Origin: Candidatus Methylomirabilota bacterium
Lineage (GTDB): Bacteria; Methylomirabilota; Methylomirabilia; Rokubacteriales; DASRDR01
Direction: 5' to 3'
Length of the DNA: 64,000 bases
Assembly: GCA_036001225.1 (NCBI GenBank)
Contig: DASYUM010000339.1
Coordinates: 2,808-66,807 of the forward strand
This document shows positions 14,924 to 49,900 of the stretch, piece by piece. The position numbers and the translations under genes were made by a program. Within the stretch, counting starts at the first letter, position 1. Each line of letters starts with the position of its first letter. The notes beneath the pieces were generated by a model. It made no database searches and was not told the origin of the DNA. It was given only the letters and a program-made list of their open reading frames with translations.

Positions 14924-14942
14924 GCTCGCCCCCGCCGCCGGG

Positions 14943-17835: not shown

Positions 17836-17836
17836 G

Positions 17837-18753: not shown

Positions 18754-18857
18754 CGACGGGCACCGGACGCGGAACGAGGGCCACCGGCAGCGCGACGCCG
18801 GTTGCAGCTCGCACGGCGGGACCGGCGGTGGAACCGGGCTGAGGCCCGAGCAGCCCT

Positions 18858-18928
18858 AGGACGCAGGGAGGAGGCGGGCCGAGGCGTATGCCGCATACGT
18901 TGAGGCCCGCCGATGACCGAGGACGACG
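18858..18928. repeat. Intergenic structured repeat element, copy 1: GGCGGGCC-GAGG-CGTATG-CCG-CATACG-TTGA-GGCCCGCC nested hairpins
   Basis: A second, longer copy is at 55341-55468. The outer stem shows compensatory changes between copies (GGCGGGCC/GGCCCGCC versus GGCGGCCC/GGGCCGCC). Confidence 0.65.
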
Positions 18929-18956
18929 GGATGCGACGGGCATCGGCCCGGGCCGG

Positions 18957-20204: not shown

Positions 20205-20231
20205 GGCTCGCCTCCGTCGTCGGAAGACCGG

Positions 20232-22392: not shown

Positions 22393-24420
22393 TCACTCGC
22401 CGTATCCCAGCCAGACGAACACCTGGCCGGGCGGGAACGGCACGCCGAGCGCCTTCTCGAAGATCCCGTAGACGAACGCGAAGCCGAAGAGGCCGAGGCC
22501 GATCGTGATGGGCCAGCGCTCGCCGGCGCCGACTTTGAGATAGCCGAACGTCATCACCAGCGTCCCGAGGGAGAAGCCGAGCAGCCAGATCGCCGCGAAA
22601 TACCCGAGCGTCCAGAAGCCCACCTGGATCGTGCGGCGCGTCGCCACGGCGGCGGGCACGTCCGCGCTCGCGTCGAACGCGTCCATCGCCACGCCGCCCC
22701 GCCGGCCGGTGGCCTCGCGGGCGAACTGAACGATCCCGAGCGCCAGCGTCGGGATGCCGACCGCCCACGGGAAGAGGCCGGCTCGCACGCCGAAGTCCCG
22801 GCTCGTCCACAGCGCCCACCCGAACAGGAGGACGAGGGCCAGGCAGAAGGCCGTCGTCCCATCGAGCCGCAGACCCGGAGGCCGCTCCATCGCGCTCCGA
22901 TCCGAGACGACGACGATGGGGACCGCGCCCTGCCGGCGGCGCCGGCGCGCGTTCCAGACCGGGACGACGAGGCCAGCCGCGATGATCGCCAGCAGCACGA
23001 GCACGCCGGGCCGCAGCAGCCAGGCCGGGCCATAGTTGTCGGTGGAGAGGAAGAGCTTGTTCTCGGCGAGCGGACCCAGGACGAGGCCGAGCAGGAGCGG
23101 CGGCCGCGGCCAGCCGAGGCGGGCCATCATCCAGCCGAGGGCGCCGAAGGCCAGCACGACCCCGAGGTCCTCAAACACGTTCTTCTCGGCGAACGCCCCG
23201 ACGTAGACCAGCGTCAGGATGAACGGGATCAGCAGCGAGCCGCGGATCTGGGTGATGCGGGCGAGCCGGTTCATGAAGGCCAGGCAGACCGCGACCGTGA
23301 TGACGTTGGAGACGACGATGGTCCACACCATCGAGAACGTCACCGCCAGATGCCCCTTGGGCGCCGGGGTCAGCATCGCCGGCCCGGGGACCAGGCCCTG
23401 GATGAGAAAGGCCCCCATCAGGATGGCCGTGCCGACGCTGGCCGGAACGCCGAACGCGACGGTGGTGACCAGGCTCCCCCCGAGCGTCGAGTTGTTGGCG
23501 GCGCCGGGCCCGAGCACGCCTTCCACCGCTCCCCGGCCGAACCGCTCCCGGTTCGGCGAGCTCTGGACCGCGTGGGCGTACGCCAGCCACTGGGTCGTGG
23601 CGGCACCCATCCCCGGGATGATGGCGATGAACGTGCCGACGGCGCTACAGCGGATGACCAGCCACCAGTGCCGAAAGGTATCGCGGACGCCCTGCCAGAC
23701 ACCGCCGATCTCGCCGACGTCCAGCTTGGCGATGGCGGAGCCCTGGACGGCGAGGTCGATGACCTCGGGGATCGCGTAGAAGCCGATCGTGACCGGAACC
23801 AGCCCGATCCCGTCCCACAGGAAGAGCTGGCCGAACGTGTACCGCTGGATGCCGGAGACCGGATCGAGGCCGATGGTCGCCAGCCACAGCCCGAGGCCGC
23901 CGGCGACGAGTCCCCGCAGGAGGGCCTGGCCGCTCAGCGCGGCGACGAAGGTGATGCCGAGGAGGGCGAGCATGAAGAACTCGGGGGAGCCGAACGTCAG
24001 GACCAGCGGCCGGACGATCGGGATGGCCACGCCGAGGACGAACGCCCCGAAGACCGCGCCGATCAGCGAGCTCATCATCGCGGCCCCCAGCGCCCGGCCG
24101 GCCTCGCCGTTCTTGGCCATGGCGTGGCCGTCGACGATGGTGGCGGCCGAGGTCGGCTCGCCGGGGATGCCGAAGAGGATCGAGGTGATGTCACCGGTGG
24201 TGTTGGTCACCGCGAACATCCCGAGCAGGAACGCGAAGGCCTCGACGGGCGTCATCTTGAAGACGAACGGCAGCATGAGGGCGAGGGTGGTGGGCCCGCC
24301 CAGGCCGGGGAGGATCCCGACCACGAAGCCGATGACGATACCGATCAGCATGAGGCCGAAGGTGGGCCAGGCGAAGACCTGGACCAGCCCGACCCAGCTG
24401 GAGTGAGCGAACTCGACTAT
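22393..24420 (-). CDS. tctA: Tripartite tricarboxylate transporter large permease TctA with a C-terminal TctB-like small-subunit domain fused in frame
   Basis: The N-terminus aligns residue-for-residue with the canonical TctA start (…GF…TP…LIG…VGILPGLGG). No canonical start codon is present at that position (GTC/ATA at 24415-24420). After ~500 aa (…VPVWNARRRRRQ) a ~170-aa four-TM extension runs to 22393. The upstream 200 aa of the 893-aa ORF in the track are junk overlapping tctC. Confidence 0.6.
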   Translation of the reverse strand: MVEFAHSSWVGLVQVFAWPTFGLMLIGIVIGFVVGILPGLGGPTTLALMLPFVFKMTPVEAFAFLLGMFAVTNTTGDITSILFGIPGEPTSAATIVDGHAMAKNGEAGRALGAAMMSSLIGAVFGAFVLGVAIPIVRPLVLTFGSPEFFMLALLGITFVAALSGQALLRGLVAGGLGLWLATIGLDPVSGIQRYTFGQLFLWDGIGLVPVTIGFYAIPEVIDLAVQGSAIAKLDVGEIGGVWQGVRDTFRHWWLVIRCSAVGTFIAIIPGMGAATTQWLAYAHAVQSSPNRERFGRGAVEGVLGPGAANNSTLGGSLVTTVAFGVPASVGTAILMGAFLIQGLVPGPAMLTPAPKGHLAVTFSMVWTIVVSNVITVAVCLAFMNRLARITQIRGSLLIPFILTLVYVGAFAEKNVFEDLGVVLAFGALGWMMARLGWPRPPLLLGLVLGPLAENKLFLSTDNYGPAWLLRPGVLVLLAIIAAGLVVPVWNARRRRRQGAVPIVVVSDRSAMERPPGLRLDGTTAFCLALVLLFGWALWTSRDFGVRAGLFPWAVGIPTLALGIVQFAREATGRRGGVAMDAFDASADVPAAVATRRTIQVGFWTLGYFAAIWLLGFSLGTLVMTFGYLKVGAGERWPITIGLGLFGFAFVYGIFEKALGVPFPPGQVFVWLGYGE

Positions 24421-25451
24421 CGGAGGAGCCCCTTGAGCTTGGCCACCACCGTCGGGTCGAGGCGGAACAGCTCCTCGACCAGGCGTTCCAGCTCCACCCC
24501 GCCGACCGGGTCCACTTCCAGCTTCGCCTGCCGCGCGTCGGCCAGGAACTCGGGGTCGCGCAGCGTCTGGCTGAAGGCGGCGCGGAGCACCTGGACGCGG
24601 TCGGCCGGGGTGCCGGGCGGCAGCGCGTAGAGCCGGCTGATGGCGGCGGGGACGATCACCGCCGCCCGCAGGAGCTGGCGGGCCTCCTCGCTGCGGAAGA
24701 GGTCGAGTGCGAGGGGCACCTGGGGCAGTTCGGCCAGGGGTTTCTCGGTCACCTGGAGAACGATGGCGATCTCCCCGGCGTCGAGGGCCTTGCGCCAGGT
24801 CACCTTGACCGATTCCCACTGCCAGCACCCGCCGGCCACCTCGCCGGACTCGGCGGCCAGCCGGATCTCGGCGGTCCCCTTGTAGCCGCGCACGAGCTGG
24901 ATCGGCAGGCCGGCGGCCTGGAGAATCCGCGCCGTGTCGTGGGTCGTGTCGCCCGGCCCGACCCCGCCCAGCTTCACCGGGACCCGGGCCGCCATCCACT
25001 GCTCGGCGGTCACGATCCCGCTCGCCCGGGTCAGCGCGCAGATCGTGTTGTCCCGGACCGGGACGCCGAGCCACACGAACCTCCGGGCGTCGAACTCGAT
25101 CCCCTCGCGGCCGAGGAGCTGGCCGACGAGCTGGTTGCCGTGGAAATTGACGATGGTGAGGCCGTCGGGCTTGGCGACCTTGTAGGCGTGGTTGGCGGCG
25201 ATGATGCTGGCCGCGCCCGGCATGTTCTCCACGACGACGGCGGGCCGGCCGGGAAGGTGCTTGGCGAGGTGCCGGGCGATCGCCCGCGAGTAGGTGTCGA
25301 AGCCGCCGCCGGCCGTGAAGCCGACGACGATGCGGACCGTCTTGCCCTCGAAGACGCGGGGCTGGCCGTCGGCCGGACGGCCGGCGACCAGGGCGGCGAG
25401 GAGCGCGAGGGCGGCGGCCAGCGCTCGGCGCCCATGAGGGCGTCGGTCCAA
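24417..25451 (-). CDS. tctC: Tripartite tricarboxylate transporter substrate-binding protein TctC (Bug family), paralogue 1
   Basis: A TTG start at 25449-25451 gives the signal peptide MDRRPHGRRALAAALALLAALVAG. Bug/TctC fold sequence follows (RIVVGFTAGGGFDTYSR…). Confidence 0.7.
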   Translation of the reverse strand: MDRRPHGRRALAAALALLAALVAGRPADGQPRVFEGKTVRIVVGFTAGGGFDTYSRAIARHLAKHLPGRPAVVVENMPGAASIIAANHAYKVAKPDGLTIVNFHGNQLVGQLLGREGIEFDARRFVWLGVPVRDNTICALTRASGIVTAEQWMAARVPVKLGGVGPGDTTHDTARILQAAGLPIQLVRGYKGTAEIRLAAESGEVAGGCWQWESVKVTWRKALDAGEIAIVLQVTEKPLAELPQVPLALDLFRSEEARQLLRAAVIVPAAISRLYALPPGTPADRVQVLRAAFSQTLRDPEFLADARQAKLEVDPVGGVELERLVEELFRLDPTVVAKLKGLLR

Positions 25452-25572
25452 TCGCGCGCGGCCGGAGACTGAATCGCCGACCGTATGGTGGTCCGCTCCG
25501 AGCGGCGGCTTTGCCGCCGCAATTTTCCTGGGGGAGGTCTCGGAGGGGGCCGTCGAGGCCCCCTCCGAAAAT

Positions 25573-26604
25573 CTAGTCATACAGGATCGTCTTCAGCCGG
25601 GCGATCATGGGCGGCTCCAGCTTGAACAGCCGCTCGACGACGCGCTCGAGCTCGTCCCCGGGGATCGGCTCGATCTCGAGCTTCGCCCGCTCGGCTTCGG
25701 CGAGGAACTCCTTGTCACGTAGCGTGGCCGCGAACGCGCGGCGCAAGAGCTGCACGCGGTCCCTGGGGGTCCCCGGCGGCAAGGCGAGCGAGCGGACGAC
25801 GGCGCTGTCGGCGTGGATCGCGACTTCGATCACGCGGCGCGCCTCGTCGGTCTTGGCGAGGTCGATGGCGAGCGGGACGCCGGGCAGCTCGGGGTGGCTC
25901 TTCGGCGCGAGCTGGAGGAGGACCACCAGCTCGCCGGCGTCCAGCGCCTTCCGCCAGGTCGCGCGGATCGAGCCCCAGTTGAAACAGGTGCCGGCCAGCT
26001 CCCCGGCCTCCACCGCGAGCCGGATGTCGGCGGTGCCCTTGTAGCCGGTGACGAGCTGGATCGGGAGCCCGAGCGCCGCCTTGATCGCCCGGGTGGCGTT
26101 GTCCGGGGTGCTGGAACCCGGCGCGACCCCGCCCATCTTCACCGGCGCCGGGGCCGTCATCCACTTCTCCAGGGTCGTGATGCCGCTGGCCTTCGCCATG
26201 ACGCAGACGACGTGATCGTTGGCGGGGGCGCCGAGGAACTCGAACTTCCGGGCGTCGAACTCGATGCCCTTCTGGCCCAGGACCTGGCCGAGGAACAGTC
26301 CGCCGATGAAGTGGCCGATGGTCAGCCCATCCGGCCGGGCGACCTTGTAGACGTGATTGGCCGCGATCAGGCTGCCCGCCCCCGGCATGTTCTCGACGAT
26401 GACCGTCGGGGCGCCGGGAAGCTGCCGGCCCAGGTGCCGGGCGAACGTGCGGGCGAACGTGTCGAAGCCCCCACCGGCCGAGAAGCCGACCACGATGCGG
26501 ATCGTCTTGCCCCGGTAGAAGTCGTCCTGGGCGACCGCCGCGGCCGGCGCGATGCCAGCCACGCCGAGCACGAGCAGAAGCCGCGCGAACCGGCCACGGG
26601 TCAT
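25573..26604 (-). CDS. tctC: Tripartite tricarboxylate transporter substrate-binding protein TctC (Bug family), paralogue 2
   Basis: ATG 26602-26604 is preceded by AAGGAG. Signal peptide MTRGRFARLLLVLGVAGIAPAAAVA. Roughly 60% identical to paralogue 1. Confidence 0.8.
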   Translation of the reverse strand: MTRGRFARLLLVLGVAGIAPAAAVAQDDFYRGKTIRIVVGFSAGGGFDTFARTFARHLGRQLPGAPTVIVENMPGAGSLIAANHVYKVARPDGLTIGHFIGGLFLGQVLGQKGIEFDARKFEFLGAPANDHVVCVMAKASGITTLEKWMTAPAPVKMGGVAPGSSTPDNATRAIKAALGLPIQLVTGYKGTADIRLAVEAGELAGTCFNWGSIRATWRKALDAGELVVLLQLAPKSHPELPGVPLAIDLAKTDEARRVIEVAIHADSAVVRSLALPPGTPRDRVQLLRRAFAATLRDKEFLAEAERAKLEIEPIPGDELERVVERLFKLEPPMIARLKTILYD

Positions 26605-28871
26605 GGGTGTTCTCCTTTTCGGGCGACGAGCGCCCGCCACACCCGCTCCGGGGTGAGCGGGAGGTCCGTGATGCGCACGCCCACGGCCCGCGCGAGCGCG
26701 TTGGCGATGGCCGGCGCGGTGGGGAGGAGGCCGCTTTCGCCGATCCCCTTGGCGCCGTACGGCCCCGGCCCGTCGCCGTTCTCGACCAGGATGCTCTCGT
26801 ACTCCACCGGCAGGTCACCCATCACCGGCACCCGATAGTCGATGAGCGACGGGTTCACCAGCTGACCGCCGTCGTAGACCAGCTGCTCGAAGAAGGTGTG
26901 GCCGAGACCCATCATGGCGCCTCCCTGCTCCTGCGCCTCGCACTCTCGCGGGTTGATCGCCCGGCCGACGTCGGCGACCGAGACATAGCGGAGCACGCCG
27001 ACCGCCCCCGTCTCCTCCTCGACCTCGACCTCGGCCGCCGCCATGCCGACCTCCCAGAACGGCGCCTCGCCGCCCAGGCGGGCCTGCCCCCGCTCGCCGC
27101 GATAGGTGCCCCGCCCGATCAGCTCGCCCCCCGGCATGCCGAAGTGGGCGGCGAGCGCCTCGGGGTAGGTCAGCGCGCCGGCGGGCGCCACGATCCGCCC
27201 GTCGCGCAGGGTCAGGCCGGCCCGGTCGCCCCCGAGCCGGCCGGCGGCGATGGCGAGGAGCTGGTCCCGGACGTCGCGGGCCGCGGCGAGGACGGCGAAG
27301 CCCAGCAGCGTCGTCGAGCGGCTCGCGCTGGTCGCCTGGTCGTAGGGCCCCAGGCCCGACTCCGGGCGGGCCGCCGCCACCCGACCGAGGGGAAGGGCCA
27401 GCTCCTCGGCGACGATCTGCAGGAGCACCGTGCGGACACCCTGGCCGCACTCGACGGTCCCGGTGAGGAGGGTGGCGCTCCCGTCGGCGTGCAGCCGCAC
27501 CATCGCGCTCGACACCGAGGGGGCGAGCGGCGCCTTGATGGTGCAGGCCAGCCCTTTCCCGCGGCGGGGCGCGGCCGGCGGCGCCGACCAGCCGATCGCG
27601 GTCGCCGCCTTCCGCAGCCCCTCGGCGAGGTCGCAGTCGATGGGCAGGTCGCCCTCCATGAACGTCTCCCCGCGCCGGAGCAGGTTCTTCACCCGCAGCT
27701 CGAGCGGGTCCATCCCGAGCCGTTCGGCGAGCACGTCCATCTGCGACTCGTAGGCCCAGGCGAGCTGGGGCACGCCGTAGCCGCGAAAGGCGACGCTCAC
27801 GACCGTGTTCGTGTAGACGCCGTAGGCGTCGATGCGGAGGTGGGGGAGGCGATAGGGCCCGGCCGAGGTGTAGGCCGACTTCTGGACGACCCGCGGCCCC
27901 ACGTCGGCGTATGCCCCGAGCTGGTAGTGGATCTCGCCCTGGCGCGCGACGAGAGTGCCGTCGCGACGGGCGCCGGTCTTGAGCCGATAGCGCACGGCCG
28001 CCCGCCGCACCGACTGGAAGGCCTCCTCGGCGGTGAGGGCCAGGCGCACCGGCCGCCGGACGGCGGCGGCGAGCGCGATCACGAGCGGCTCGATCTTCGT
28101 GTAGGACTTGTTCCCGTAGGCGGCGCCGAGATAGGGGACGATGACCTGGAGGCGGGCCAGCGGCACTCCGAACATCGCGGCCAGCTCCGCGCGCACCGGG
28201 AAGGGGTGCTGGGTCGACGCCCAGACCGTGATCCCCTGGCGATCGACCCGGGCGATGGCGCAGTGCGGCTCGAGCGCGCAGTGGTGCGCCATCGGGAAGG
28301 TATAGGTCTGCTCGACCACCAGATCGGCCTCGGCGAAGGCGCGGTCGGGGTCGCCCCGCTCGTAGTGGAAGTGGTGACAGACGTTGGTCCCCGCAATCGG
28401 GCGGAGCGTCCCCAGGTCCCGGAAGTGGCCGGCGGGGCGGGGCGACTCGTGTAGCAGCGGGGCGCCCGGCGCCAGCGCCTCGTCGAGGGTGATGACGACC
28501 GGCAGCTCGGCGAGGTCGACGGCGATCCGGCCGAGCGCCGCGTCCGCGTGGGCCGCCGTGTCGGCCACCACCGCCACCACGGGTTCGCCGGCGTAGCGCA
28601 CCACGCCGTCGGCCAGGAGCGGCTGGTCCTTGAAGGCCGGACCGTAGTAGAGGTCCTTCACCGGGAGGTCACGGGCGGTGAGGACGCCGATGACGCCGGC
28701 CGCCCGCGCGGCGCCGGCGGTGTCCACGCTCACGACGCGCGCGTGGGGAAGCGGGCTCCGCCAGAGCTTGGCGTGGACCATCCCGGGGACCACCAGGTCG
28801 GTGATGAACCCCGCCCGCCCGGTCGCCTTGGCCGGCGTATCGACGCGCGGCGCGGCGGTGCCGACGATCAC
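26601..28871 (-). CDS. Xanthine-dehydrogenase-family molybdopterin-binding large subunit (CoxL/XdhA-like), paralogue B
   Basis: GTG 28869-28871 overlaps the paralogue-A stop (GTGA). Aldehyde-oxidase/XDH a/b hammerhead and Mo-binding motifs (VAFRGYGVPQ, GQGVRTV…, ESGLLPTAPAIANAL). The 1478-aa ORF in the track is an artefact fusing A and B. Confidence 0.8.
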   Translation of the reverse strand: MIVGTAAPRVDTPAKATGRAGFITDLVVPGMVHAKLWRSPLPHARVVSVDTAGAARAAGVIGVLTARDLPVKDLYYGPAFKDQPLLADGVVRYAGEPVVAVVADTAAHADAALGRIAVDLAELPVVITLDEALAPGAPLLHESPRPAGHFRDLGTLRPIAGTNVCHHFHYERGDPDRAFAEADLVVEQTYTFPMAHHCALEPHCAIARVDRQGITVWASTQHPFPVRAELAAMFGVPLARLQVIVPYLGAAYGNKSYTKIEPLVIALAAAVRRPVRLALTAEEAFQSVRRAAVRYRLKTGARRDGTLVARQGEIHYQLGAYADVGPRVVQKSAYTSAGPYRLPHLRIDAYGVYTNTVVSVAFRGYGVPQLAWAYESQMDVLAERLGMDPLELRVKNLLRRGETFMEGDLPIDCDLAEGLRKAATAIGWSAPPAAPRRGKGLACTIKAPLAPSVSSAMVRLHADGSATLLTGTVECGQGVRTVLLQIVAEELALPLGRVAAARPESGLGPYDQATSASRSTTLLGFAVLAAARDVRDQLLAIAAGRLGGDRAGLTLRDGRIVAPAGALTYPEALAAHFGMPGGELIGRGTYRGERGQARLGGEAPFWEVGMAAAEVEVEEETGAVGVLRYVSVADVGRAINPRECEAQEQGGAMMGLGHTFFEQLVYDGGQLVNPSLIDYRVPVMGDLPVEYESILVENGDGPGPYGAKGIGESGLLPTAPAIANALARAVGVRITDLPLTPERVWRALVARKGEHP

Positions 28872-31162
28872 GGCGGCGGCCCGTCGCCACGCGCCGCCTG
28901 CAGGGCGCGCCAGACGCGCTCCGGGGTCAGCGGCAGCTCGGTGAGCCGGACGCCCACCGCGCGGGCGAGGGCGTTCCCGACCGCGGGGGCCACGCAGAAC
29001 GTCCCGCTCTCCCCCACGCCCTTCGCGCCGAAGGGGCCGGGTCCGTCGCCGTTCTCGACCAGCAGCGTGTCGAGCCGGTCCGGCAGGTCGGCGAAGGTCG
29101 GCAGGCGGTAGTCGATCAGCCCGGGATTCAGGAGCTGGCCCGCCTCCCCGACCCGGGCCTCGAACAGAGCGGGGCCGAGTCCCTGCATCGCCGCGCCCTC
29201 GTCCTGGGCCGCGCACTCGCGCGGGTTGATGGCCTGCCCCACGTCGGCGGCCGAGACGTACCTCCGCAGCCGCACCGCGCCGGTCTCTGCATCGACCTCG
29301 ACCTCGGCGGCGCCCATCCCGGTCTCCCAGAACACGGTGGCGCCGCCCAGCGTCCCCGACCACGTCGTGGGGACGAAACTGCCGACGCCGGTCACCTCGC
29401 CGCCGACGAAGCCGAAGTGGCCGCGGACGACCTCGGCCACCGTGAGTGAGTGCGCGCCATGGACGACGCGGCCGTCCCGGACGTCGAGGGCCGCGGGGTC
29501 GGCGCCGAGGCGGTCGGCCGCGAGGGCGCAGAGCTGGAGCCGGGCATCGCGGGCGGCCGCCTGGACGGCGAGCCCCATCACGGTCGTCGAGCGGCTGGCG
29601 CTGGTCCCGTGGTCGTACGGCGTGAGCGACGTATCGGGGAGGGCGACGACGACGCTCTCGAACGGAACCCCGAGCGTCTCGGCGGCGATCTGGGCGAGGA
29701 CGGTCTGGGCGCCCTGCCCCACCTCGACCGTGCCGGCCAGGAGGCTCACGCTCCCGTCGGCGTGGATCCGGACCACCGCGCTGGACACCGTGTGTGTCCC
29801 GCCGCCGTCCTTCATCGCGACCGCCAGGCCCCGGCCGCGGCCCGGCCCGAGCGCGGCGCCCCAGTCCACCGCCTGGGCCGTCCCCTGGAGACCCTCGGCG
29901 AGGTCGCCGTCCATCGGCGTGTCGCCCGCCACGTATTCCTCGCCGCGCTTGAGCAGGTTCTTGAGCCGGAAGGCCAGCGGGTCGAGGCCGAGCCGCTCGG
30001 CGAGCACGTCCATCTGCGACTCGGAGGCCCAGGTGACCTGGGGCACGCCGTAGCCCCGGTAGGCGCCGGCCGGGACGTTGTGGGTGTAGACGCAGCGCGC
30101 CTCGATCCGGAGCGCCGGGATGCGGTACGGTCCCGGCGCGCGGTACCCGGCCTTCGTCGCGACGCGGGGGCCGATGTCGGCGTAGGCGCCGGTGTCGAGG
30201 ACGGCGTCGCACTCGCGCGCCAGCAGCGTCCCGTCCCGCCGGACTGCGGTCCGGAGCCGGACCGTCACCGCGTGGCGGGTGACGGTGCGCGCGCTCTCCT
30301 CGAGCGAGAGCGCCAGGCGCACGGGCCGGCCGACTCGGGCGGCCAGCGCGGCGGCGATCGGCTCGATCTTGGTGTAGCACTTCCCGCCGAAGGCCCCGCC
30401 GACGAGGGGGACGACCACCTGGACCCGGGCGAGGGGGAGATCGAAGATCTCCGCCAGCTCCTTCCGGACCGCGAACGGGTGCTGGGTGCCGGTCCACACG
30501 GTGAGGCCGTCCTCGTCCAGCCGCGCCACCGCGCAGTGGGGCTCGAGGGCGTGGTGGGAGAGCGCGGGATAGCGGTAGACCTCGTCGACGACCAGGTCGG
30601 CCTCGGCGAATGCCCGGGCGCGGTCGCCCCGCGCGTACTCGAAGTGGTGGCAGACGTTGGTTCCCGGCACCGGCCGGAGCCCGGCGAGGTCGCGGAAGCG
30701 TCCGGCCCGCTCGCGCTGGGGATGGACCAGGGGCGCGCCGGACGCCAGCGCCAATTCGGCGCTCGTCGCGGCCGGCTGCTCCTCGTAGCGGACCTCGAGG
30801 AGGCCGACGGCCGCCTCCGCGTGGGCCTCGGTGTCGGCGACCGCGGCGACCACCGGCTCCCCCGCGAAGCGGACCTCCTCGTGGGCGAGGATCGGCTGGT
30901 CCCGGAAGGCCGGGCCGTAGTACAGGCGCGCGACGGGCAGGTCGGCGGCCGTGCAGACGGCCAGGACGCCGGGGGCGGACGCCGCGCGGGACGTCTCGAC
31001 GCCGAGGAGCCGGGCGTGAGGGACCGGGCTTCGCCACAGCTTGGCGTGGACGAGGCCCGGGAGCACGAGATCGCTGACGTAACGGGCCTCGCCGGTCACC
31101 TTCTCCCGGGCGTCGAGTCGGGGCACCGAGCGGCCGACGACGCTCAGGTGCTCAGCGGCCAT
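28868..31162 (-). CDS. Xanthine-dehydrogenase-family molybdopterin-binding large subunit (CoxL/XdhA-like), paralogue A
   Basis: 764 aa with motif GAYRGYGVPQ. Co-directional with the 2Fe-2S and FAD subunit genes. Confidence 0.85.
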   Translation of the reverse strand: MAAEHLSVVGRSVPRLDAREKVTGEARYVSDLVLPGLVHAKLWRSPVPHARLLGVETSRAASAPGVLAVCTAADLPVARLYYGPAFRDQPILAHEEVRFAGEPVVAAVADTEAHAEAAVGLLEVRYEEQPAATSAELALASGAPLVHPQRERAGRFRDLAGLRPVPGTNVCHHFEYARGDRARAFAEADLVVDEVYRYPALSHHALEPHCAVARLDEDGLTVWTGTQHPFAVRKELAEIFDLPLARVQVVVPLVGGAFGGKCYTKIEPIAAALAARVGRPVRLALSLEESARTVTRHAVTVRLRTAVRRDGTLLARECDAVLDTGAYADIGPRVATKAGYRAPGPYRIPALRIEARCVYTHNVPAGAYRGYGVPQVTWASESQMDVLAERLGLDPLAFRLKNLLKRGEEYVAGDTPMDGDLAEGLQGTAQAVDWGAALGPGRGRGLAVAMKDGGGTHTVSSAVVRIHADGSVSLLAGTVEVGQGAQTVLAQIAAETLGVPFESVVVALPDTSLTPYDHGTSASRSTTVMGLAVQAAARDARLQLCALAADRLGADPAALDVRDGRVVHGAHSLTVAEVVRGHFGFVGGEVTGVGSFVPTTWSGTLGGATVFWETGMGAAEVEVDAETGAVRLRRYVSAADVGQAINPRECAAQDEGAAMQGLGPALFEARVGEAGQLLNPGLIDYRLPTFADLPDRLDTLLVENGDGPGPFGAKGVGESGTFCVAPAVGNALARAVGVRLTELPLTPERVWRALQAARGDGPPP

Positions 31163-31646
31163 CGCCCGGCCCGGCGTGGCCCGGCTGCCGAGAAGCGGCC
31201 AGGATCGCCTCCAGGATGCGCTTGTAGCCGGTGCACCGACAGATGTTGCCGCGCATGTAGCGCTTGACCTGGTCGGCCGTCGGCGTCGGGTTCTCCTCGA
31301 GCAACGCCACGGTGGCCATGATCATCCCCGGCGTGCAGAAGCCGCACTGGAGGGCGCCGTGCTCGACGAAGGCCGCCTGCACCGGGTGGAGATCGTCCCC
31401 GCGGGCGAGGCCCTCGATGGTGCGGACGTGCGTGCCCCGGGCTTCGAAGGCGAGGACGGTGCAGGCGCTCACCGGCCGGTCGTCGAGGAGCACGGTGCAG
31501 GCCCCGCAGACCTGGACCTCGCACGACTTCTTCACGCCGAGGAGGCCCAGGCGGTCGCGGAGGCATTCGATCAGGGTCTCCCACGGCGGGACGGTCAGCT
31601 GGTGCCGCTCGCCGTTGACCGTCACCGTCATCGGCACTTCTTTCAT
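31152..31646 (-). CDS. (2Fe-2S)-binding small subunit of the Mo hydroxylase (CoxS-like)
   Basis: MKEVPMTVTVNGERH…CEVQVCGACTV…CGFCTPGM…CRCTGY, with two [2Fe-2S] Cys clusters. The real start is ATG 31644-31646. Confidence 0.85.
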   Translation of the reverse strand: MKEVPMTVTVNGERHQLTVPPWETLIECLRDRLGLLGVKKSCEVQVCGACTVLLDDRPVSACTVLAFEARGTHVRTIEGLARGDDLHPVQAAFVEHGALQCGFCTPGMIMATVALLEENPTPTADQVKRYMRGNICRCTGYKRILEAILAASRQPGHAGPGDGR

Positions 31647-31753: not shown

Positions 31754-32635
31754 TCAGAGGACTGGACTGCCGTCCCGCAGCGAGGCGAGGGCCTGGGCGA
31801 AGGCCCGCTTGAGCAGGACCCCGACCAGGTGGGCCTTGAAGTCGGCCGAGCCGTGGAGGTCGGTGACCGCATCCGCCGCCTGCCCGGCCCGCCGTCCGGC
31901 CTCGGCGAGCGCCGCCACGCTCTCGTCGATCGCCCGGTCCCGCAGCATCGCCTCGGCCTCGGGCATCCGGCACGGTACGGGGCCGACGCACCCGACCGCG
32001 ACCCGGGCGTCGGCGACCCGCCCGTCGTCGAGCGTGAGCGCGACCGCCACCCCGACCGAGGGGCGCTCGAGGTACCCGAACTTGAGATAGGCCGCCGCCG
32101 ACCGGGGCGGAAGCGGGGGGACCGCGATCTCGGTCAGCACCTCGTCGCCCTCCAGGCACGTCTCGTACGGACCCCGGAAGAGCGCGGTGAGCGGGACCGT
32201 CCGCTCGCCGCCCGCGCGCTCGAGCCGTGCCGTCGCGGCGAAGACCTGGAGGAGCGGCCCCGGATCGGCGTGAGGCTCGGCGAAGCAGAGGTTGCCGCCG
32301 AGCGTCCCCACCGCGCGGACACGGACGTTGGCGACGTCGGCCTCCAGGCGGGCGAGAGCCGGGAAGTGCTCGCGGACCAGCGGCTCCCGCTCGAGGGCGC
32401 GGTGGGTGGCGGCGGCGCCGATCCGGAGGGTGCCGTCGGCGTCGCGGCGAAGGCCGGCCAGCCCGGGAACCGTCTTGAGGTTCACCAGGTAGTCGTAGTG
32501 GACCAGGCCCTCCTTCATCGCCAGCAGCAGCTCGGTCCCCCCCGCGTAGAGCCGGGCCGCGTCCCCGTGCTGGGCCAGGAGGCCAGAGGCCTCGGCGACG
32601 GAGGTCGGCTCGCAGAGCTCGAACGGCCTCAGCAC
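31754..32635 (-). CDS. FAD-binding medium subunit of the Mo hydroxylase (CoxM/XdhB-like)
   Basis: 293 aa with an FAD-binding PCMH-type domain (YAGGTELLLAMKEGL…). Confidence 0.85.
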   Translation of the reverse strand: MLRPFELCEPTSVAEASGLLAQHGDAARLYAGGTELLLAMKEGLVHYDYLVNLKTVPGLAGLRRDADGTLRIGAAATHRALEREPLVREHFPALARLEADVANVRVRAVGTLGGNLCFAEPHADPGPLLQVFAATARLERAGGERTVPLTALFRGPYETCLEGDEVLTEIAVPPLPPRSAAAYLKFGYLERPSVGVAVALTLDDGRVADARVAVGCVGPVPCRMPEAEAMLRDRAIDESVAALAEAGRRAGQAADAVTDLHGSADFKAHLVGVLLKRAFAQALASLRDGSPVL

Positions 32636-32639
32636 GCGC

Positions 32640-33092
32640 TCACCCCGGGGTCTCCAGCTGCGCGCGCAAGGCCGCCGCGAACCGGTCCACGATCTCGGCG
32701 CCCTTGCGCACGATGACGCCGTGGCCGAGCGTGCCCAGCTTCCCCAGGACCGTGATCTCGGCCGTCAGCCGGAGCGCCGTCCCGCCGTCGGTGGGCGCCA
32801 GCACGACGTCGAGGTCCACCTTCACCAGCCCGTCGACGGCCGCGTCGCGCCCGCCGGCGCGGGCGCGGAGCCGCGCCGGCGGCTCGACCTCGACGACCTC
32901 GATGTCCAGGGGGAACTGGACCTTGAACGGCCCGACCTTCTCGGCGACCACGGCGGCGTAGCGCTTGCCCGCCTCGACCGTCCGCACCTCCCGGGCCCCC
33001 GGGACGCAGGCGGCCAGCCGCGGGATGTCCCAGAGAAAGCCCCAGACGGTCTCCCGCGACGCCCCGATCCGGATCTCGCGCTCGACTCTCAC
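32640..33092 (-). CDS. coxG: CoxG-family SRPBCC protein
   Basis: ~150 aa (VEREIRIGASRETVWGFLWDIPRLAACVPGA…). GTG start at 33090-33092. The upstream part of the 408-aa ORF in the track is junk. Confidence 0.65.
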   Translation of the reverse strand: MRVEREIRIGASRETVWGFLWDIPRLAACVPGAREVRTVEAGKRYAAVVAEKVGPFKVQFPLDIEVVEVEPPARLRARAGGRDAAVDGLVKVDLDVVLAPTDGGTALRLTAEITVLGKLGTLGHGVIVRKGAEIVDRFAAALRAQLETPG

Positions 33093-34636
33093 GGGGCTCG
33101 CGACACCTCGGAGGCCTCCAGCACCGGAACCGGCCGGAAGACGAGCGACTTGATCACCACCGGGACGATGCCCGAGACGGGCAGCGGATCCCCGACGTCG
33201 ATGTAGTCGAAGGCGGCGAGGTCCAGCTCGTCCACCGCCACTAGGCTCGGCCCCGCCCCCAGCTCCTCGACCAGGAGCCGCCCCACCAGCCGCGCGATGT
33301 CGCGGTCGAAGGCCAGCACCACCGGAGCGTCGCGGCGCCCGATGGCGGCCAGGATCCCTTCCCCGAGCGCCCGCAGTTCCTCGTAGCTCGAGCCGAACTC
33401 CCACCGGATGGCGAGCGCGAGGGGTCCGGCCAGGAGCTCGGGATCGTGGCCCGCCATCGCCGTCTGGACCGCGCGCGCGACGCCGGTCGCCGTCAGCGGA
33501 TCGGCCAGGCGCACGGGGAAGACCGGCAGATTCCGCAGGACGAGGCCCGGCCGCGGGTGGAAGATCGTGCTGCCGCTCACCTGCACCGTGTACTGGGCCG
33601 CCCCGATGACGGTCGCCCGGATGCCCTCGTCCGCCTCGACGAGGCGCGGGCCCAGCGGGTGCCCGGTGAGCCGCCGCCGCACGGCCTCGCCCAGCATCCG
33701 GCCGAGGTCGCCGAAGCCTCCGGGCTCCCGGCCGTAGACGTACTCGGCGACGCCGCCGGAGAACATGAGGGCCGTGACGGGCTCGGCCCGGGCCAGGGGC
33801 GCGGTGTGCATGAGACGGCGGCTCAGCGGCGAGAGCGGACGGCGGTCGATCACCTCGAAGAGGCACTCGACCATTCGCGCCACGAGGTCGCCGAGGAGCG
33901 CGGCCCGGGCCGGCTCGTCGATGGGGTCGCCGAGGGCGAGCCGGCCGCCCGCCGTCTCGGCCAGCTCGGCGCCGGCCTCCTCCAGCCGGCTGACGCGCCC
34001 ATCCTCCCAGGCGACGAGCCGCCCGCCGACGTTGATGACGGCCGTGTCCACGACTTCGCCGTCCCGGCAGAGCGCCAGCTTGCTCGTCCCGCCGCCGACG
34101 TCCACGTTGAGCACGGCTCCGCCCTGCCGCGAGCGGGCCACGGCGCCGGAGCCGTGCGCGGCCATGATCGCCTCCAGGCGGGGGCCGGCGGTGGCGCAGA
34201 CGAACCGCCCGCCGTCGCGCGCGAAGAGCCCGAGGATCGCCTCCGCGTTCGTCTTCTTGGCCGCCTCCCCGGTGACGATGACCGCCCCGGTGTCGATCGC
34301 CTCTCGGGAGAGGCCGGCTCGCCGATAGGCGTCGTCGACGAATCCGGCCAGCCGCTCGGCGTCGATGGTGACCGGGTCCCGATACGGCGTCAGCAGGATC
34401 GGCGACTGGTGGACGACGTCGCGTTCGACCACGCGGTACCGACTGGACAGGCTCAGCCCGAGGCGGCGGAGGACCAGGCGGGAGAAGGTCAGGTGCGAGG
34501 TCGAGGAGCCGATGTCGATGCCGACGCTGCGCAGCTCGATCCGCTCGGCCGCCCAGACCGGGTCGGCCTCGTCGGGCAGGCCGACCGGATCGCCCTCGTG
34601 GGCGTCGTGCTCGTGGGAGTGGGGAAAGTCGTGCAT
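33089..34636 (-). CDS. EutA-like ASKHA-superfamily protein (homologue of the ethanolamine ammonia-lyase reactivase)
   Basis: Start MHDFPHSHEHDAHEG at ATG 34634-34636, overlapping the bicupin stop (ATGA). Collinear with EutA: SVGIDIGSSTSHL, AIDTGAVIVTGEAAKK, VLNVDVGGGTSK, VINVGGRL, MFSGGVAEYVY, ATVIGAAQYTVQVSGSTIF, VVIKSLVF. Confidence 0.7.
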   Translation of the reverse strand: MHDFPHSHEHDAHEGDPVGLPDEADPVWAAERIELRSVGIDIGSSTSHLTFSRLVLRRLGLSLSSRYRVVERDVVHQSPILLTPYRDPVTIDAERLAGFVDDAYRRAGLSREAIDTGAVIVTGEAAKKTNAEAILGLFARDGGRFVCATAGPRLEAIMAAHGSGAVARSRQGGAVLNVDVGGGTSKLALCRDGEVVDTAVINVGGRLVAWEDGRVSRLEEAGAELAETAGGRLALGDPIDEPARAALLGDLVARMVECLFEVIDRRPLSPLSRRLMHTAPLARAEPVTALMFSGGVAEYVYGREPGGFGDLGRMLGEAVRRRLTGHPLGPRLVEADEGIRATVIGAAQYTVQVSGSTIFHPRPGLVLRNLPVFPVRLADPLTATGVARAVQTAMAGHDPELLAGPLALAIRWEFGSSYEELRALGEGILAAIGRRDAPVVLAFDRDIARLVGRLLVEELGAGPSLVAVDELDLAAFDYIDVGDPLPVSGIVPVVIKSLVFRPVPVLEASEVSRAP

Positions 34637-35700
34637 CAGTGGCGCACGACCGCGGGCATGCGGCTCGAGACCCCCTCCTGGGCCAGCTCGGTCTCGAACA
34701 GCGCGCGCACCGCCGGAACCTCGTCCTCGTACTCGATCTGGTTCCCGCCGGTGGCCCGGTCCTCCGAGAGCCGATCGTGCTTGTCGTCGAGCTTGTGCTT
34801 CACGCTCCCCCAGCGGATCGCCAGGTAGCGCGCCGGGGTGGGGCCGGCGTTGAAGTGCTGGTGCCACCAGTAGTCGGGCGGAACGAACACGCTCCCCTCG
34901 TGCCAGTCGACCTTGGTCCATGGCTGGCCGTCCGGCCAGAGCAGCGAGTACCCCCGGCCGCCCAGGATGATCACGTTGGCACCGGGCCCGTGCCGGTGCG
35001 CCTTCTTGTACGTTCCCACCGGAAACTCCGAGATGTGGGCGATCAGGGTGTTGTTGGCCAGCTCGAACATGATGTTGCTGCCGCCCGCGCCGCGCTCCTT
35101 CCACTCGAGGAGCTGGAACGCCTTCACGTCGGGAATGAAGTTGGCTTCCCAGATCCGGCTGGCCAGGAACGTCCCTTTCCCGCTGAAGGCGTCGGCCTCC
35201 GCGGTGAACCGGTCGCGGAAGACGGAGGGGTTGTCGAAGACGAAGTCGTGGTTGTGGAAGAGATTCATGACCAGGGGCGCGCTGGTGACGGCGTAATAGC
35301 GGGCCGGCTGGGTTCCCGACGCGTTGAAGTGCTGGTGGAAGGCGTTGAGGGGGATCGCGAAGAGGCTGCCCGCCTGCCACTCGAAGGTGATCTTGAGGCT
35401 GCCCTCGATCCAGACCGCCGTCGAGCCGCGGCCGGCGAGGACGTAGATCACCTCCTCGTAGAGGTGGCGCTGGGGCGCCAGCTTCCCCCCCGGCGCGATC
35501 TCGCACACGTAGGCGCCGTTGGTCCCCCCCGTCCCTTCCATGTCGATGAAGACGCCCCGGCCGCCCTTGCGGGCCCAGGGGGCCAGATCCACCATCCGCA
35601 GGTCCTCGACGTAGAAGCCGCGGATGACGGGGAGCCCCTCGGACTGCTGCCATTGCTCGTAGGTGCTGCGCATGGTGACGGGGCTGTTGGAGATCGGCAT
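34636..35700 (-). CDS. Bicupin protein (gentisate 1,2-dioxygenase-like double cupin)
   Basis: ATG 35698-35700 with an AGGGGGA RBS. Two internally duplicated cupin halves each carry HQHFN…PARY. HRHGPGANVII is also present. Confidence 0.7.
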   Translation of the reverse strand: MPISNSPVTMRSTYEQWQQSEGLPVIRGFYVEDLRMVDLAPWARKGGRGVFIDMEGTGGTNGAYVCEIAPGGKLAPQRHLYEEVIYVLAGRGSTAVWIEGSLKITFEWQAGSLFAIPLNAFHQHFNASGTQPARYYAVTSAPLVMNLFHNHDFVFDNPSVFRDRFTAEADAFSGKGTFLASRIWEANFIPDVKAFQLLEWKERGAGGSNIMFELANNTLIAHISEFPVGTYKKAHRHGPGANVIILGGRGYSLLWPDGQPWTKVDWHEGSVFVPPDYWWHQHFNAGPTPARYLAIRWGSVKHKLDDKHDRLSEDRATGGNQIEYEDEVPAVRALFETELAQEGVSSRMPAVVRH

Positions 35701-35778: not shown

Positions 35779-36753
35779 ATGGCCCGACTCGAGCTGACCC
35801 TCGCCTGCGGCGACTACGATCGGACGCTCGCGCTCAAGACCGGCGCCGTCCGGGCCGAGGGCGTCGCGCTGAACGTCTTGACCCTGGGCCCGGAAGAGAC
35901 CTTCTACCGCATGGCGCGCTTCCGGGAGTTCGACGTGTCCGAGTTCTCGCTGTCCACCTACACGATCCTGCGCGGCCGCGGAGAGCCGCTGGTCGCCATC
36001 CCGGTCTTCCCGTCCTTCATGTTCCGCCACTCGGCGATCTTCGTGCGGGACGACGCCGGCATCCGGGAGCCGCGGGACCTGGTGGGCAAGCGGGTCGGCG
36101 TGCCGAAATACCACATGACCGCCGCGGTGTGGGTGCGCGGCATCCTCGAGGACGAGTACGGGGTGGCGCCCAAGGATCTCCTCTGGTTCGAGGGCGGCGA
36201 GGGCGCGAAGGTGAAGGAGGTGGACGTGACGCTGCCCCCGGAGGTCCGGCGGGAGTCGGCCCCCGGTGACCGGCCGCTCGGCGACCTGGTGGCGGCGGGC
36301 GAGCTGGACGCATTCATCGGCGCCCGGCGCCCCGCCGCCTTCGGCACCGGCGCCGGCCGCGTGCGCCGGCTCTTCCCCGACTTCCGACGCGTCGAGCGCG
36401 CCTACTACGAGAAGACCGGCATCTTCCCGATCATGCACACCGTCGTGGTGCGGGAGGAGCTGGCCCGCCAGCACCCGTGGCTCCCCCGCAGCCTCTACGA
36501 CGCGTTCGGCGAGGCCAAGCGCCTGGCCTACCAGCGCCTGGACTTCACCGCCGCGCTGCCGTCGGCCCTGCCCTGGCTGATGGCCGAGGTCGAGGAGACG
36601 CGGGCCCTCATGGGCGACGACCCGTTCCCCTACGGGGTCGCCCGCAACCGGAAGACGCTGGAGACGCTCGCCGGCTACATCGACCGCCAGGGCCTCGCCC
36701 CCCGCCGGCTGTCGGTGGACGAGATGTTCTGGCCGTCCACGCTCGCGACGTAG
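35779..36753 (+). CDS. 4,5-dihydroxyphthalate decarboxylase-like protein (NMT1/THI5-like periplasmic-binding fold)
   Basis: N-terminus [34 protein letters not shown] matches the family start. AAGGGAG RBS. Transcribed divergently from the bicupin gene. Confidence 0.6.
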
Positions 36754-36759
36754 CGAATC

Positions 36760-37617
36760 GTGGACCAGCGGATCATCCAGCTCTACGACGACTTCACCCA
36801 CGGCCATCTCGACCGCCGGCTGTTCCTCGAGCGGCTGGCGAAGCTGGTCGGGTCGACGGCGGCGGCGCTCGTGCTGCTGCCGCAGCTCGAATCCGACTAC
36901 GCCGGCGCCCAGACCGTTCCCGAGACGGACGCCCGGATCGGGACGGAGGAGGTGACCTACCCCGGGTCCACGGGAACGGTGACGGGCTACCTCGCCCGCC
37001 CGGCCGGGGCGGCGAAGGCGCCCGGGGTCATCGTCATCCACGAGAACCGCGGGGTCCAGCCGCACATCCGGGACGTGGCCCGGCGCGCGGCTCTGGCCGG
37101 CTACGTCACGCTCGCGCCCGATCTGATGTCGGCCGTCGGCGGCACGCCGGCGAGCGAGGACGAGGCGCGGACCAGGTTCGCGCGGGTCGAGCTGCCGGTG
37201 GCGCTCGCCGACGCACTCAAGTCGATCGAGTACCTCCGCGCGCGCCCCGATGCGACCGGAAAGGTCGGCGTCGTCGGCTTCTGCTGGGGCGGCAGCCTGG
37301 TCGGCGAGATCGCGGCCGCCGGCGCCGACGTCCAGGCGGGCGTGGTCTTCTACGGAATCGCGCCGCCGCTCGACAAGGTGTCAGCCATCAAGGCGCCGCT
37401 CCTCCTCCATTACGCCGGACTCGACGACCGAGTGAACGCCACCGTGCCGCCCTTCGAGGACGCCCTGAAGAAGGCGGGGAAGACGTACACCCTTCACGTG
37501 TACGAGGGCACCAAGCACGCCTTCCACAACGACACGGCCGGCGCCCGCTACGATCCGGCGGCGGCCACCCTCGCCTGGTCGCGGACCCTCGAGTTCTTCG
37601 CCCGGACGCTGCGGTAG
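36760..37617 (+). CDS. Dienelactone hydrolase family protein
   Basis: Family-typical N-terminus [21 protein letters not shown] core motifs VVGFCWGG and HAFHND. GTG start. Confidence 0.8.
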
Positions 37618-42673: not shown

Positions 42674-43662
42674 GCGCCGTCGCCCAGGAGTGCCGCCGCG
42701 AACGCCCGCATCGTCGCCTCCCGGCCGCCGTCGTCGGTGCCATACGGCACGATCGCGACCTGGCCGATCCCGGTCCCCCGGAGACGCTCGACGGCCGCGC
42801 GGCAGGTGTCGGGGGCGCCGGCGAGAGCGAAGCGCTCGACCAGCCAATCGGGGACGACCCGCGCCTGGCTGGCACCCCGCTCCATGTGCTGGTAGTAGTC
42901 GTAGGACGCCCGGATCTCGGCCACGACCCGCTGCTCCTCGGCGTCCAGGTCGAACGGCAACGGCCGGTTCAGCACGCGCGCGACGTGGGCCTTGACCGCC
43001 GCGCGCGCCGCCGCGGCGTCGCCCACGGCGCAGGGGACCCAGAGCACGAGGTCGAGCGAGTCCGGATCGCGCCCGGCCTCGCGGGCGCCCGCGCGGACGG
43101 TGTCGACCGCCTGCCGGACCCGCTCGGGCACGATGCCCACCAGGACGATGACGCCGTCCGCGATCCGCCCGGCCAGGGCCAGGAGCCGCGGGCCGCTGGC
43201 GGCCACGTAGATCCGGATCCCCTCGCCGGCGGCGTGCTTGAGCCGGAGCGTTCCGGTCTCGGTCTCGACGTCGCGACCGGCCAGGAGGTCCCGCACCCGC
43301 CGAACGTCCCGCGCGAAGACGTCGAGCCGGCTCGGCTTCCTTCCCATGGTCTCGACGGCGCTGTCGCCCAGCCCGAGCCCGAGGATGACGCGGTCGGGGC
43401 ACGCCTCGTGAAGGGTGGCCAGGGCGCTGGCGACGACGGCGGGATGGCGCGTGACCAGGTTGGTGACACCGGTGCCGAGGGTGAGGCGCGTCGTCGCGAG
43501 CGCGGCGGCCGCGAGCGTGACGTAGGCCTCGCGCCAGATGAGGTGCGAGTCGCCGATCCACGCGTGGGAGAAGCCCAGCTCCTCGGTGACCCGGGCCAGG
43601 CGCACGATGGCGAGCAATGGCGCGGTGGGGAAGAGGCCGACCCCGAACGCCAGGTCGGTCAC
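42670..43662 (-). CDS. LLM-class (luciferase-like) flavin/F420-dependent oxidoreductase
   Basis: 330 aa with a TIM-barrel LLM signature (…GFSHAWIGDSHL…, …GVIVLVGIVPE…). Confidence 0.75.
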   Translation of the reverse strand: MTDLAFGVGLFPTAPLLAIVRLARVTEELGFSHAWIGDSHLIWREAYVTLAAAALATTRLTLGTGVTNLVTRHPAVVASALATLHEACPDRVILGLGLGDSAVETMGRKPSRLDVFARDVRRVRDLLAGRDVETETGTLRLKHAAGEGIRIYVAASGPRLLALAGRIADGVIVLVGIVPERVRQAVDTVRAGAREAGRDPDSLDLVLWVPCAVGDAAAARAAVKAHVARVLNRPLPFDLDAEEQRVVAEIRASYDYYQHMERGASQARVVPDWLVERFALAGAPDTCRAAVERLRGTGIGQVAIVPYGTDDGGREATMRAFAAALLGDGA

Positions 43663-49526: not shown

Positions 49527-49900
49527 GAGCAGATCCGCGCCTGGCCGCCCGGGATGCGCGCGGTCGAGGGCTCCGGCAGGACCGGCGCGCCATTCCGGGG
49601 GTGTCGATGGGTTTCCCGGCGGAGGGGGGGCCAGCACGATACCTCCTTGGCTACCCTCCCCCCCGAGAGCAGCCGGGCGAGGCCAGTGAAGGCCAGCCTC
49701 GCGAACGCGGACCACAGTCTAGGGACGGCCTGGCCATTAGTCAAGAATTGGACCGATCGCCTGCGGAGGCGGATGATGCGCGCCCCGTCCCGATGTCGGC
49801 GACCCTGGCTTTTCCTGCTCGCCTCGATTTGCTGGCATGCCGCTGTCAGCATCGCGGAGCGGCCGGTCCCGGCCCCCGCCGGAAAGTGAGGCGCGCCACC

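Follow-up and report, generated by a model that had tools for sequence, protein, structure and literature searches.

A stretch of 64 kb from a Candidatus Methylomirabilota genome (contig DASYUM010000339.1), referred to here at its full length as the window, carries on its minus strand a gene for a 515-aa EutA-like protein, which directly follows a bicupin gene and precedes the genes of a molybdenum hydroxylase (Mo-hydroxylase). On comparing this neighbourhood with those of its relatives, the conserved partner of the EutA-like gene was found to be the bicupin, not the Mo-hydroxylase. The EutA-like protein is proposed to assist the bicupin as an ATP-dependent accessory factor for the insertion or repair of its metal centre, and this function is put forward tentatively, at slightly less than even confidence. 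The original prediction, made from the sequence of the window, had suggested a role in metalloenzyme maturation or repair; that idea gained support from a conserved His-rich tail, while the function itself is one that we infer.

The neighbourhoods were taken from contigs with close homologues, from 79 loci of GTDB species representatives, and from PLSDB plasmids, and 557 EutA-like relatives were confirmed in all. The loci were searched with the window proteins, and a neighbour-joining (NJ) tree was built with E. coli EutA as the root. Of 88 EutA-like genes, 45 had a homologue of the window bicupin within 1.5 kb. Outside one derived subclade, the linkage was 45/57, or 45/51 where sufficient flanking sequence was available, and the bicupin gene was directly upstream on the same strand in approximately 37 of the 45 linked loci. 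The linkage was spread over all deep branches of the tree, which was not bootstrapped, and the linked lineages (at least eight phyla) comprised Rokubacteria/Methylomirabilota, Chloroflexota/Dehalococcoidia, Alphaproteobacteria, deltaproteobacterial groups, Binatia (locus L046), Actinomycetota, Armatimonadota, and Vicinamibacteria. In locus L089, the two genes overlapped by 1 nt, exactly as in the window. Because dozens of unrelated genomes share the pair, its arrangement goes far beyond what chance would produce. No fusion of the two proteins was seen among the cluster representatives described below. Moreover, a single EutA-like gene was accompanied by two to four tandem bicupin paralogues in loci L067, L050, L084, L003, and L098, a ratio more consistent with an accessory factor shared among them than with a pathway enzyme needed in stoichiometric amounts.

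The original prediction had emphasised the Mo-hydroxylase context and had raised the question of how often EutA-like genes adjoin cupin or xanthine dehydrogenase (XDH)-family genes. The cupin linkage was frequent, as described above, whereas XDH-family genes were found within 10 kb in only approximately 5 of the 45 bicupin-linked loci (the window, L006, L009, L049, and L083), and the emphasis on the Mo-hydroxylase did not hold. The clade is large and mostly known from metagenome-assembled genomes (MAGs). Its cultured carriers are Phyllobacterium zundukense A18/3m (pair WP_262291241 / WP_262291242, N8E88_RS06860 / RS06865), Sinorhizobium mexicanum ITTG R7, S. chiapasense, and S. terangae; the presence of both genes was verified in all of these except S. 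terangae, for which only an EutA-like match is available.

The assignment of the protein to the EutA family was verified with profile hidden Markov models, and the best family was EutA. Pfam PF06277 matched with 387.1 bits (cutoff 27; E = 1.6e-115) and from end to end, residues 34–500 being aligned with model positions 2–474 of 475, and the identity to E. coli EutA was 35% over 482 aa. The predicted collinearity with EutA was thus confirmed. A better score for a different ASKHA subfamily, which would have spoken against it, did not occur, as the second-best family was MreB with 24 bits. Judging from these alignments, the protein is a genuine EutA-family ASKHA protein with no better-scoring subfamily. 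All ASKHA nucleotide-binding motifs (phosphate-1, phosphate-2, and adenosine) were retained. Within the clade, 83 positions were conserved at ≥95%, of which 63, including all nucleotide motifs, were common to E. coli EutA. The other 20 differed from E. coli EutA and included two clade-invariant residues, namely, H48 in the phosphate-1 hairpin DIGSSTSH, which is Gln in canonical EutA, and C147 in FVCATAG, which is Val. H48 and C147 are possible candidates for additional metal ligands. A search of PDB sequences returned no solved EutA structure, the sole match being MreB (E = 0.01).

In addition to the ASKHA core, the window protein carries a 33-residue N-terminal tail, MHDFPHSHEHDAHEGDPVGLPDEADPVWAAERI, which is predicted to be disordered; residues 1–21 had a predicted local distance difference test score (pLDDT) below 50 in the AlphaFold2 (AF2) model. 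Among the 45 bicupin-linked homologues, 30 opened with a start codon followed by His and Asp or Glu, and in many of these that start codon was the first one after an in-frame stop. The longer pattern start-H-[DE]-x3-6-H-x-H fitted 25 of the 45, and at least three His residues were found within the 40 residues preceding the core in 40 of the 45. The canonical EutA proteins of E. coli, C. difficile, and Haladaptatus have 8–11 residues ahead of the first ASKHA strand and no His among them. The tails were also surveyed in the best 150 of 774 cluster representatives at E ≤ 1e-30, all of which scored at least 294 bits to the query. At least three tail His residues were found in 62 of the 123 scorable representatives from these 150, that is, those in which the core motif was found. 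Some representatives had 10–17 tail His residues in HGH or HDH repeats, for example MSHADDHQHGVGHHHDHDHPHGHGHGHGH, and the two of these that were looked up were both within bicupin operons. In the case of the cultured carriers, the tail starts with VHDFDLDHEHED in P. zundukense A18/3m and with VHDLDFDHEHDN in S. mexicanum ITTG R7.

The window protein has the His-rich or N-terminal MH[E/D] segment that defines a metallochaperone-like class, which is a functional class and not a homologous family. In HypA, the invariant N-terminal M-H-E binds Ni via the terminal amine, His2, and Glu3 (PMC5557546), and the tail resembles this site by analogy only. The same motif-level likeness, an N-terminal Met-His-Asp/Glu followed by HxH or poly-His/HGH, extends to the nickel metallochaperones HypA (M-H-E), HypB, UreE, SlyD, and CooJ, although the folds are unrelated and those proteins work with GTPases or without any NTPase.

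The partner of the EutA-like protein is, as judged from its matches, a member of an uncharacterised bicupin family. The AF2 model of the bicupin was confident (pLDDT 90.9), and its nearest folds were the 3-His Fe(II) gentisate and salicylate dioxygenases (PDB 3bu7, 2phd, and 2d40), with which it shares the bicupin fold but only 14–19% identity. A PDB sequence search returned 3bu7 with E = 9e-6 over 60 residues. No NCBIfam/TIGRFAM dioxygenase model was reached, the best and only match being MabB with 44 bits against a cutoff of 650. In an alignment of 40 sequences (A2), a single invariant metal motif was found, consisting of Y231, H235, H237, G250, H280, and H282 in the C-terminal barrel; together, its two parts form an HxH...H site, that is, a 3-His(+1) site without a Glu ligand. 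No conserved His was found in the N-terminal barrel in the same alignment. The catalytic 3-His Fe site of gentisate 1,2-dioxygenase is located in the N-terminal cupin domain, unlike the His triad of the window bicupin. The family also has a conserved, family-specific acidic C-terminal tail, QIEYEDEDP. In carboxylate or aromatic catabolism, the bicupin probably serves as a ring-cleaving oxygenase of the Fe(II) type or as a related one.

Some bicupins, namely, P0201 (MBI4287635.1) and P0207 (HEX9880677.1), bear the NCBI name 'ethanolamine ammonia lyase-activating protein'. No paper using this name was found by full-text searches, and it looks like a propagated guilt-by-association label.

EutA needs ATP to strip damaged cobalamin from its partner enzyme, ethanolamine ammonia-lyase (PMC5821096). 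The EutA-like protein would be a diverged paralogue re-targeted to the bicupin encoded just upstream, and it would keep the mode of its family, in which the bound cofactor of a partner enzyme is exchanged using ATP, with the bicupin as the client and a metal ion as the 'cofactor'. In such a mechanism, ATP binding and hydrolysis by the ASKHA core would open the bicupin or exchange something within it, and the flexible tail (M-H-D-x4-H-x-H...) would hold the metal ion on its way into or out of the HxH...H site. In effect, one or several bicupin paralogues would be served by an ATP-dependent metal-centre insertase or reactivase. We infer the physical interaction of the two proteins, the dependence of bicupin activity on ATP, and the binding of metal by the tail, as well as which metal is involved and which reaction the bicupin catalyses. 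A wider proposal, which is held with less confidence than the role in the window, is that such proteins could form a widespread and unrecognised class of ATP-driven ASKHA metallochaperones or reactivases, with MH[D/E]-x4-H-x-H or poly-His tails, that load or repair the 3-His centre of a new bicupin oxygenase family.

The comparison with known systems can be summarised as follows. Approximately 467 residues are collinear with EutA of E. coli and Salmonella, and the C-terminal block DYIDIG...VPVVIKSLxF is present; the ATP-dependent exchange of something bound to a partner enzyme would be a further, proposed likeness. Unlike EutA, the protein has no eutBC, B12, or bacterial microcompartment (BMC) context and has the bicupin as its conserved neighbour, scores below all NCBIfam equivalog cutoffs, has H48 and C147 in place of Gln and Val, and bears the extra N-terminal His/Asp/Glu-rich tail, which measures 25–60 residues in the clade. 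DdrAB and GdrAB are ATP-dependent reactivases of diol and glycerol dehydratases that release the damaged cofactor and have an Hsp70/actin-like ATPase fold; they are conceptually the same kind of reactivase as that proposed here. XylT-type ferredoxins, which reactivate catechol 2,3-dioxygenase, provide a case in which a dedicated repair factor is encoded beside a ring-cleavage Fe(II) dioxygenase. Unlike the EutA-like protein, XylT is a small [2Fe-2S] ferredoxin that acts by reduction without ATP, and there is no homology between the two.

Several points weigh against a metal-centre insertase or reactivase. Cupin dioxygenases normally bind Fe(II) spontaneously, and a nucleotide-dependent maturation of these enzymes would be, as far as we know, without precedent. 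His/Asp-rich disordered tails can be incidental, and tails without His were found in some bicupin-linked EutA-like proteins, for example in S. chiapasense ('...EEEQGGRIFFS...'), as well as in several cluster representatives. The NJ tree was built without bootstrap. In the reverse survey, the EutA-like gene was immediately downstream of the bicupin gene in two of four sampled bicupin homologues, but the remaining two had no EutA-like gene within 6 kb. Finally, a derived, monophyletic EutA-like subclade of 31 members, mostly from Binatia and Syntrophales, had no bicupin within 10 kb; its neighbours were DUF4175, TPR-Peptidase_MA, and MoxR genes (L004, L010–L040, and L045, with the EutA-like gene at approximately 10001–11500). 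The unlinked bicupins and this subclade indicate that the partnership is not obligatory in cis.

As separate observations, members of the bicupin-less subclade contain an internal acidic His-rich segment, xHEGHEDHDHDD, away from the N-terminus, and one bicupin of Binatia (P0207, L087) is located elsewhere, beside a thiamine pyrophosphate (TPP) enzyme and another MoxR-DUF58-TgpA operon.

Among the other explanations, the EutA-like protein could be a kinase or ATP-dependent activating subunit that acts on a small-molecule substrate, which is then converted by the bicupin; the two proteins would form a two-component ATP-dependent enzyme, with the logic of acetone carboxylase or of the hydantoinase/oxoprolinase systems. 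This is considered unlikely because a single EutA-like gene serves two to four divergent bicupin paralogues, many bicupin homologues occur without an EutA-like gene, and the target of the one family member that has been characterised is a protein rather than a metabolite. Moreover, the His-rich disordered tail would have no obvious role in a kinase.

An ATP-driven redox reactivase, in which ATP hydrolysis is coupled to electron transfer so that an Fe(III) bicupin returns to the Fe(II) form, can be modelled on the ASKHA activators of 2-hydroxyacyl-CoA dehydratases and benzoyl-CoA reductases. It is regarded as improbable, as only a single conserved Cys is available instead of the cluster-binding Cys pair of HgdC-type activators, and no ferredoxin or reductase is conserved alongside the pair. 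The EutA-like protein also differs from HgdC/BcrAD-type activators by an extra C-terminal domain of approximately 150 aa.

It is very improbable that the protein is an ordinary reactivase of ethanolamine ammonia-lyase or another B12 enzyme, with eutBC elsewhere in the genome and a coincidental neighbourhood. Such a reading would agree with the full-length Pfam match, the identity to E. coli EutA, and the public annotation, since HEV8677121.1, a protein of a Methylomirabilota (Rokubacteria-type) MAG with the same sequence as the window protein, is annotated as EutA; in addition, the present contig was searched within the window only. On the other side, none of the four NCBIfam EutA equivalog cutoffs (NF007991–NF007994) was reached, the scores being 319 vs 598, 267 vs 769, 216 vs 799, and 214 vs 952 bits. 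The original prediction had stated that the window holds no eutBC, B12-enzyme, or microcompartment genes. This was borne out by the Pfam scan of all coding regions and by tblastn, in which no eutBC, B12-binding, or BMC shell genes were found in the 64 kb, and E. coli EutB, EutC, EutL, and EutJ gave a best E value of 0.13. Hence, no eutB or eutC lies within approximately 30 kb of the gene here, and none (E ≤ 1e-5) was found within 10 kb in any of approximately 90 related loci, where tblastn with EutL and EutJ likewise gave no match. The gene thus stands outside a eut or B12 context both in the window and in these loci. The canonical genes of E. coli, C. difficile, and the archaeon Haladaptatus adjoin eutBC, in bacteria and archaea alike, whereas the bicupin is the conserved partner of the present clade across phyla, and this clade is distinguished by a tail and by invariant residues of its own.

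A role in the maturation or repair of the adjacent Mo-hydroxylase, by Mo-cofactor or Fe-S insertion, is just as improbable and was rejected because the linkage is not conserved: the translational coupling to coxG in the window, its repetition in the syntenic Rokubacteria locus L006, and the CoxL-type genes near the pair in L009, L049, and L083 would favour it, but XDH-family genes are rare beside the pair, as counted above, the pair also occurs in operons without any Mo enzyme, and no similarity to XdhC, CoxD, CoxE, or CoxF was found with Pfam and NCBIfam.

The features of the window are listed in Table 1. Approximately 55 coding regions were scanned against Pfam, and the genes, in DNA with a G+C content of 72%, were placed by the phase of third-position GC and by reading the junctions.

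Table 1. Genes and motifs of the bicupin/EutA-like region, with positions counted from the first nucleotide of the window
Feature	Position	Strand	Basis or remark
Bicupin, 354 aa	34636..35700	-	ATG 35700, TGA 34636; two Cupin_2 matches (Pfam)
Bicupin, C-terminal cupin motif 1, Y231-K-K-A-H235-R-H237 (Y231, H235, H237 invariant)	34990..35010	-	Alignment A2; translation verified
Bicupin, C-terminal cupin motif 2, H280-Q-H282-F-N284 (H280, H282 invariant)	34849..34863	-	Alignment A2; translation verified
EutA-family ASKHA ATPase (by sequence), 515 aa, non-canonical bicupin-linked clade	33089..34636	-	ATG 34636, TGA 33089
His/Asp/Glu-rich N-terminal tail, residues 1-33, begins MHDFPHSHEHDAHEGD	34538..34636	-	Predicted disordered
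ASKHA phosphate-1 motif DIGSSTSH (D41-H48)	34493..34516	-	Alignments A4 and A5 and conservation scan
ASKHA phosphate-2 motif DVGGGT (D179-T184)	34085..34102	-	Invariant; common to E. coli EutA
ASKHA adenosine motif SGG (S293-G295)	33752..33760	-	Invariant; common to E. coli EutA
CoxG/SRPBCC protein	32640..33092	-	PF06240 COXG, E 8e-16; GTG start
FAD-binding subunit of Mo-hydroxylase (CoxM/XdhB type)	31754..32635	-	FAD_binding_5 and CO_deh_flav_C
[2Fe-2S] subunit of Mo-hydroxylase (CoxS type)	31152..31646	-	Fer2_2 and Fer2; start verified
Molybdopterin-binding large subunit 1 (CoxL)	28868..31162	-	Ald_Xan_dh_C, MoCoBD_1, MoCoBD_2
Molybdopterin-binding large subunit 2 (CoxL)	26601..28871	-	Pfam; tandem paralogue, 60% identical to subunit 1 (tblastn)
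Tripartite tricarboxylate transporter: two TctC receptors and TctA/TctB fusion	22393..26640	-	Pfam
Monocupin, 162 aa	21891..22379	-	After the transporter genes
NMT1/PhtD-like periplasmic-binding-fold protein	35779..36753	+	Weak NMT1 and Phosphonate-bd matches; no NCBIfam assignment
Dienelactone-hydrolase/YghX-family hydrolase	36760..37617	+	PF01738, E 6e-50; NF041440 297 bits, below cutoff 460

On the minus strand, the genes follow in the order of bicupin, EutA-like protein, CoxG, FAD-binding subunit, [2Fe-2S] subunit, large subunits 1 and 2, two TctC receptors, TctA/TctB fusion, and monocupin. The start of the EutA-like gene had been predicted to overlap the bicupin stop as ATGA; the overlap is real, but the junction reads TGATG and the genes share 1 nt. 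The second predicted overlap, between the EutA-like stop and the GTG start of coxG, was read at the junction as GTGA, with 4 nt shared. The NMT1/PhtD-like gene is divergent from the bicupin operon, with a spacer of 78 bp.

Beyond the window, the genes seen most often beside the pair were those of the tripartite tricarboxylate transporter (TTT), of the NMT1/PhtD-like protein, and of the ATP-binding cassette transporter described below. For the TTT transporter, 13 related loci had TctC and 11 had TctA. Homologues of the NMT1/PhtD-like protein were near the pair in at least 10 loci of several phyla, often divergently adjacent (besides the window, L006, L056, L060, L061, L066, L067, L069, L071, L074, L086, and L097), and this protein may be a decarboxylase of the same pathway. 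Other loci had Rieske oxygenases, LigB, amidohydrolase_2, UbiD, FAA-hydrolase, and TPP enzymes as neighbours. These enzymes point to the catabolism of aromatic or other carboxylates, with substrates differing among loci. In the case of the window, the operon with the pair, a Mo-hydroxylase with two large subunits, and the TTT transporter suggests the catabolism of a (hetero)aromatic carboxylate.

In some loci, an ATP-binding cassette (ABC) transporter was interleaved with the bicupin and EutA-like genes (L003, 12988–16212; L089, 1–4897; L098, 558–7270; and the contig of P0268). It consists of a fused double permease of approximately 580 aa, a TOBE-domain ATPase, and an SBP_bac_1/6/8/11 binding protein, which is the architecture of Fbp, PhnSTU, and ThiBPQ; the NCBIfam matches were weak and only PhnS2/U2/T2-like.

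Molybdopterin large subunits are encoded three times on the minus strand of the window, by paralogous genes. The tandem pair (28868–31162 and 26601–28871) is served by one FAD and one 2Fe-2S subunit, and the third (40412–42721), which is 52% identical, is located 9 kb upstream beside luciferase-like monooxygenases and an amidohydrolase. With these paralogues, one (hetero)aromatic substrate may be hydroxylated two or three times in succession. The monocupin has a 65%-identical homologue at L049 12966–13442, near the bicupin/EutA-like pair of this Chloroflexota locus, which also has a Mo-hydroxylase.

Downstream of the bicupin operon and on the same strand, a block for the catabolism of nitrogen compounds (13583–21479, minus strand) encodes an amidase, a class-V aminotransferase, a 474-aa protein without a Pfam match, an AllH-like protein, a DddP-like M24 protein (279 bits, below the cutoff of 600), and a D-amino-acid dehydrogenase. 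A 557-aa open reading frame (ORF) at 38648–40321 (minus strand) had a strong coding signature (third-position GC of 0.88) and no Pfam match. Two overlapping ORFs in different frames on the plus strand, at 49601–50857 and 50671–51243, matched the N- and C-terminal parts of SBP_bac_1, respectively; they are a frameshifted solute-binding-protein gene or an assembly error. Finally, ankyrin repeats make up nearly the whole of the 532-aa protein encoded at 55501–57099 (minus strand), an unusual composition for a free-living bacterium.

Full-text searches gave no publication in which EutA is connected with cupins or gentisate-type enzymes. The EutA family itself is known, and a member re-targeted to a bicupin and equipped with a metal-binding-type tail appears to be undescribed. 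As cultured Phyllobacterium and Sinorhizobium carry the pair, the hypothesis is directly testable. If it is true, a systematic mis-annotation would be corrected, as hundreds of clusters are called 'EutA', and a large share of 'EutA' genes would be unrelated to ethanolamine or B12. In practical terms, heterologous catabolic pathways may need the helper to be co-expressed for bicupin activity. Cupin enzymes are generally assumed to metallate spontaneously, and the protein would represent the first nucleotide-dependent maturation or repair system for them. The reactivase principle, in which an ATPase pries a spent cofactor from an enzyme, would then extend from B12 enzymes to mononuclear-metal cupins, and it would account for the way in which bacteria maintain the activity of Fe(II)-type ring-cleaving enzymes, which are prone to oxidation.

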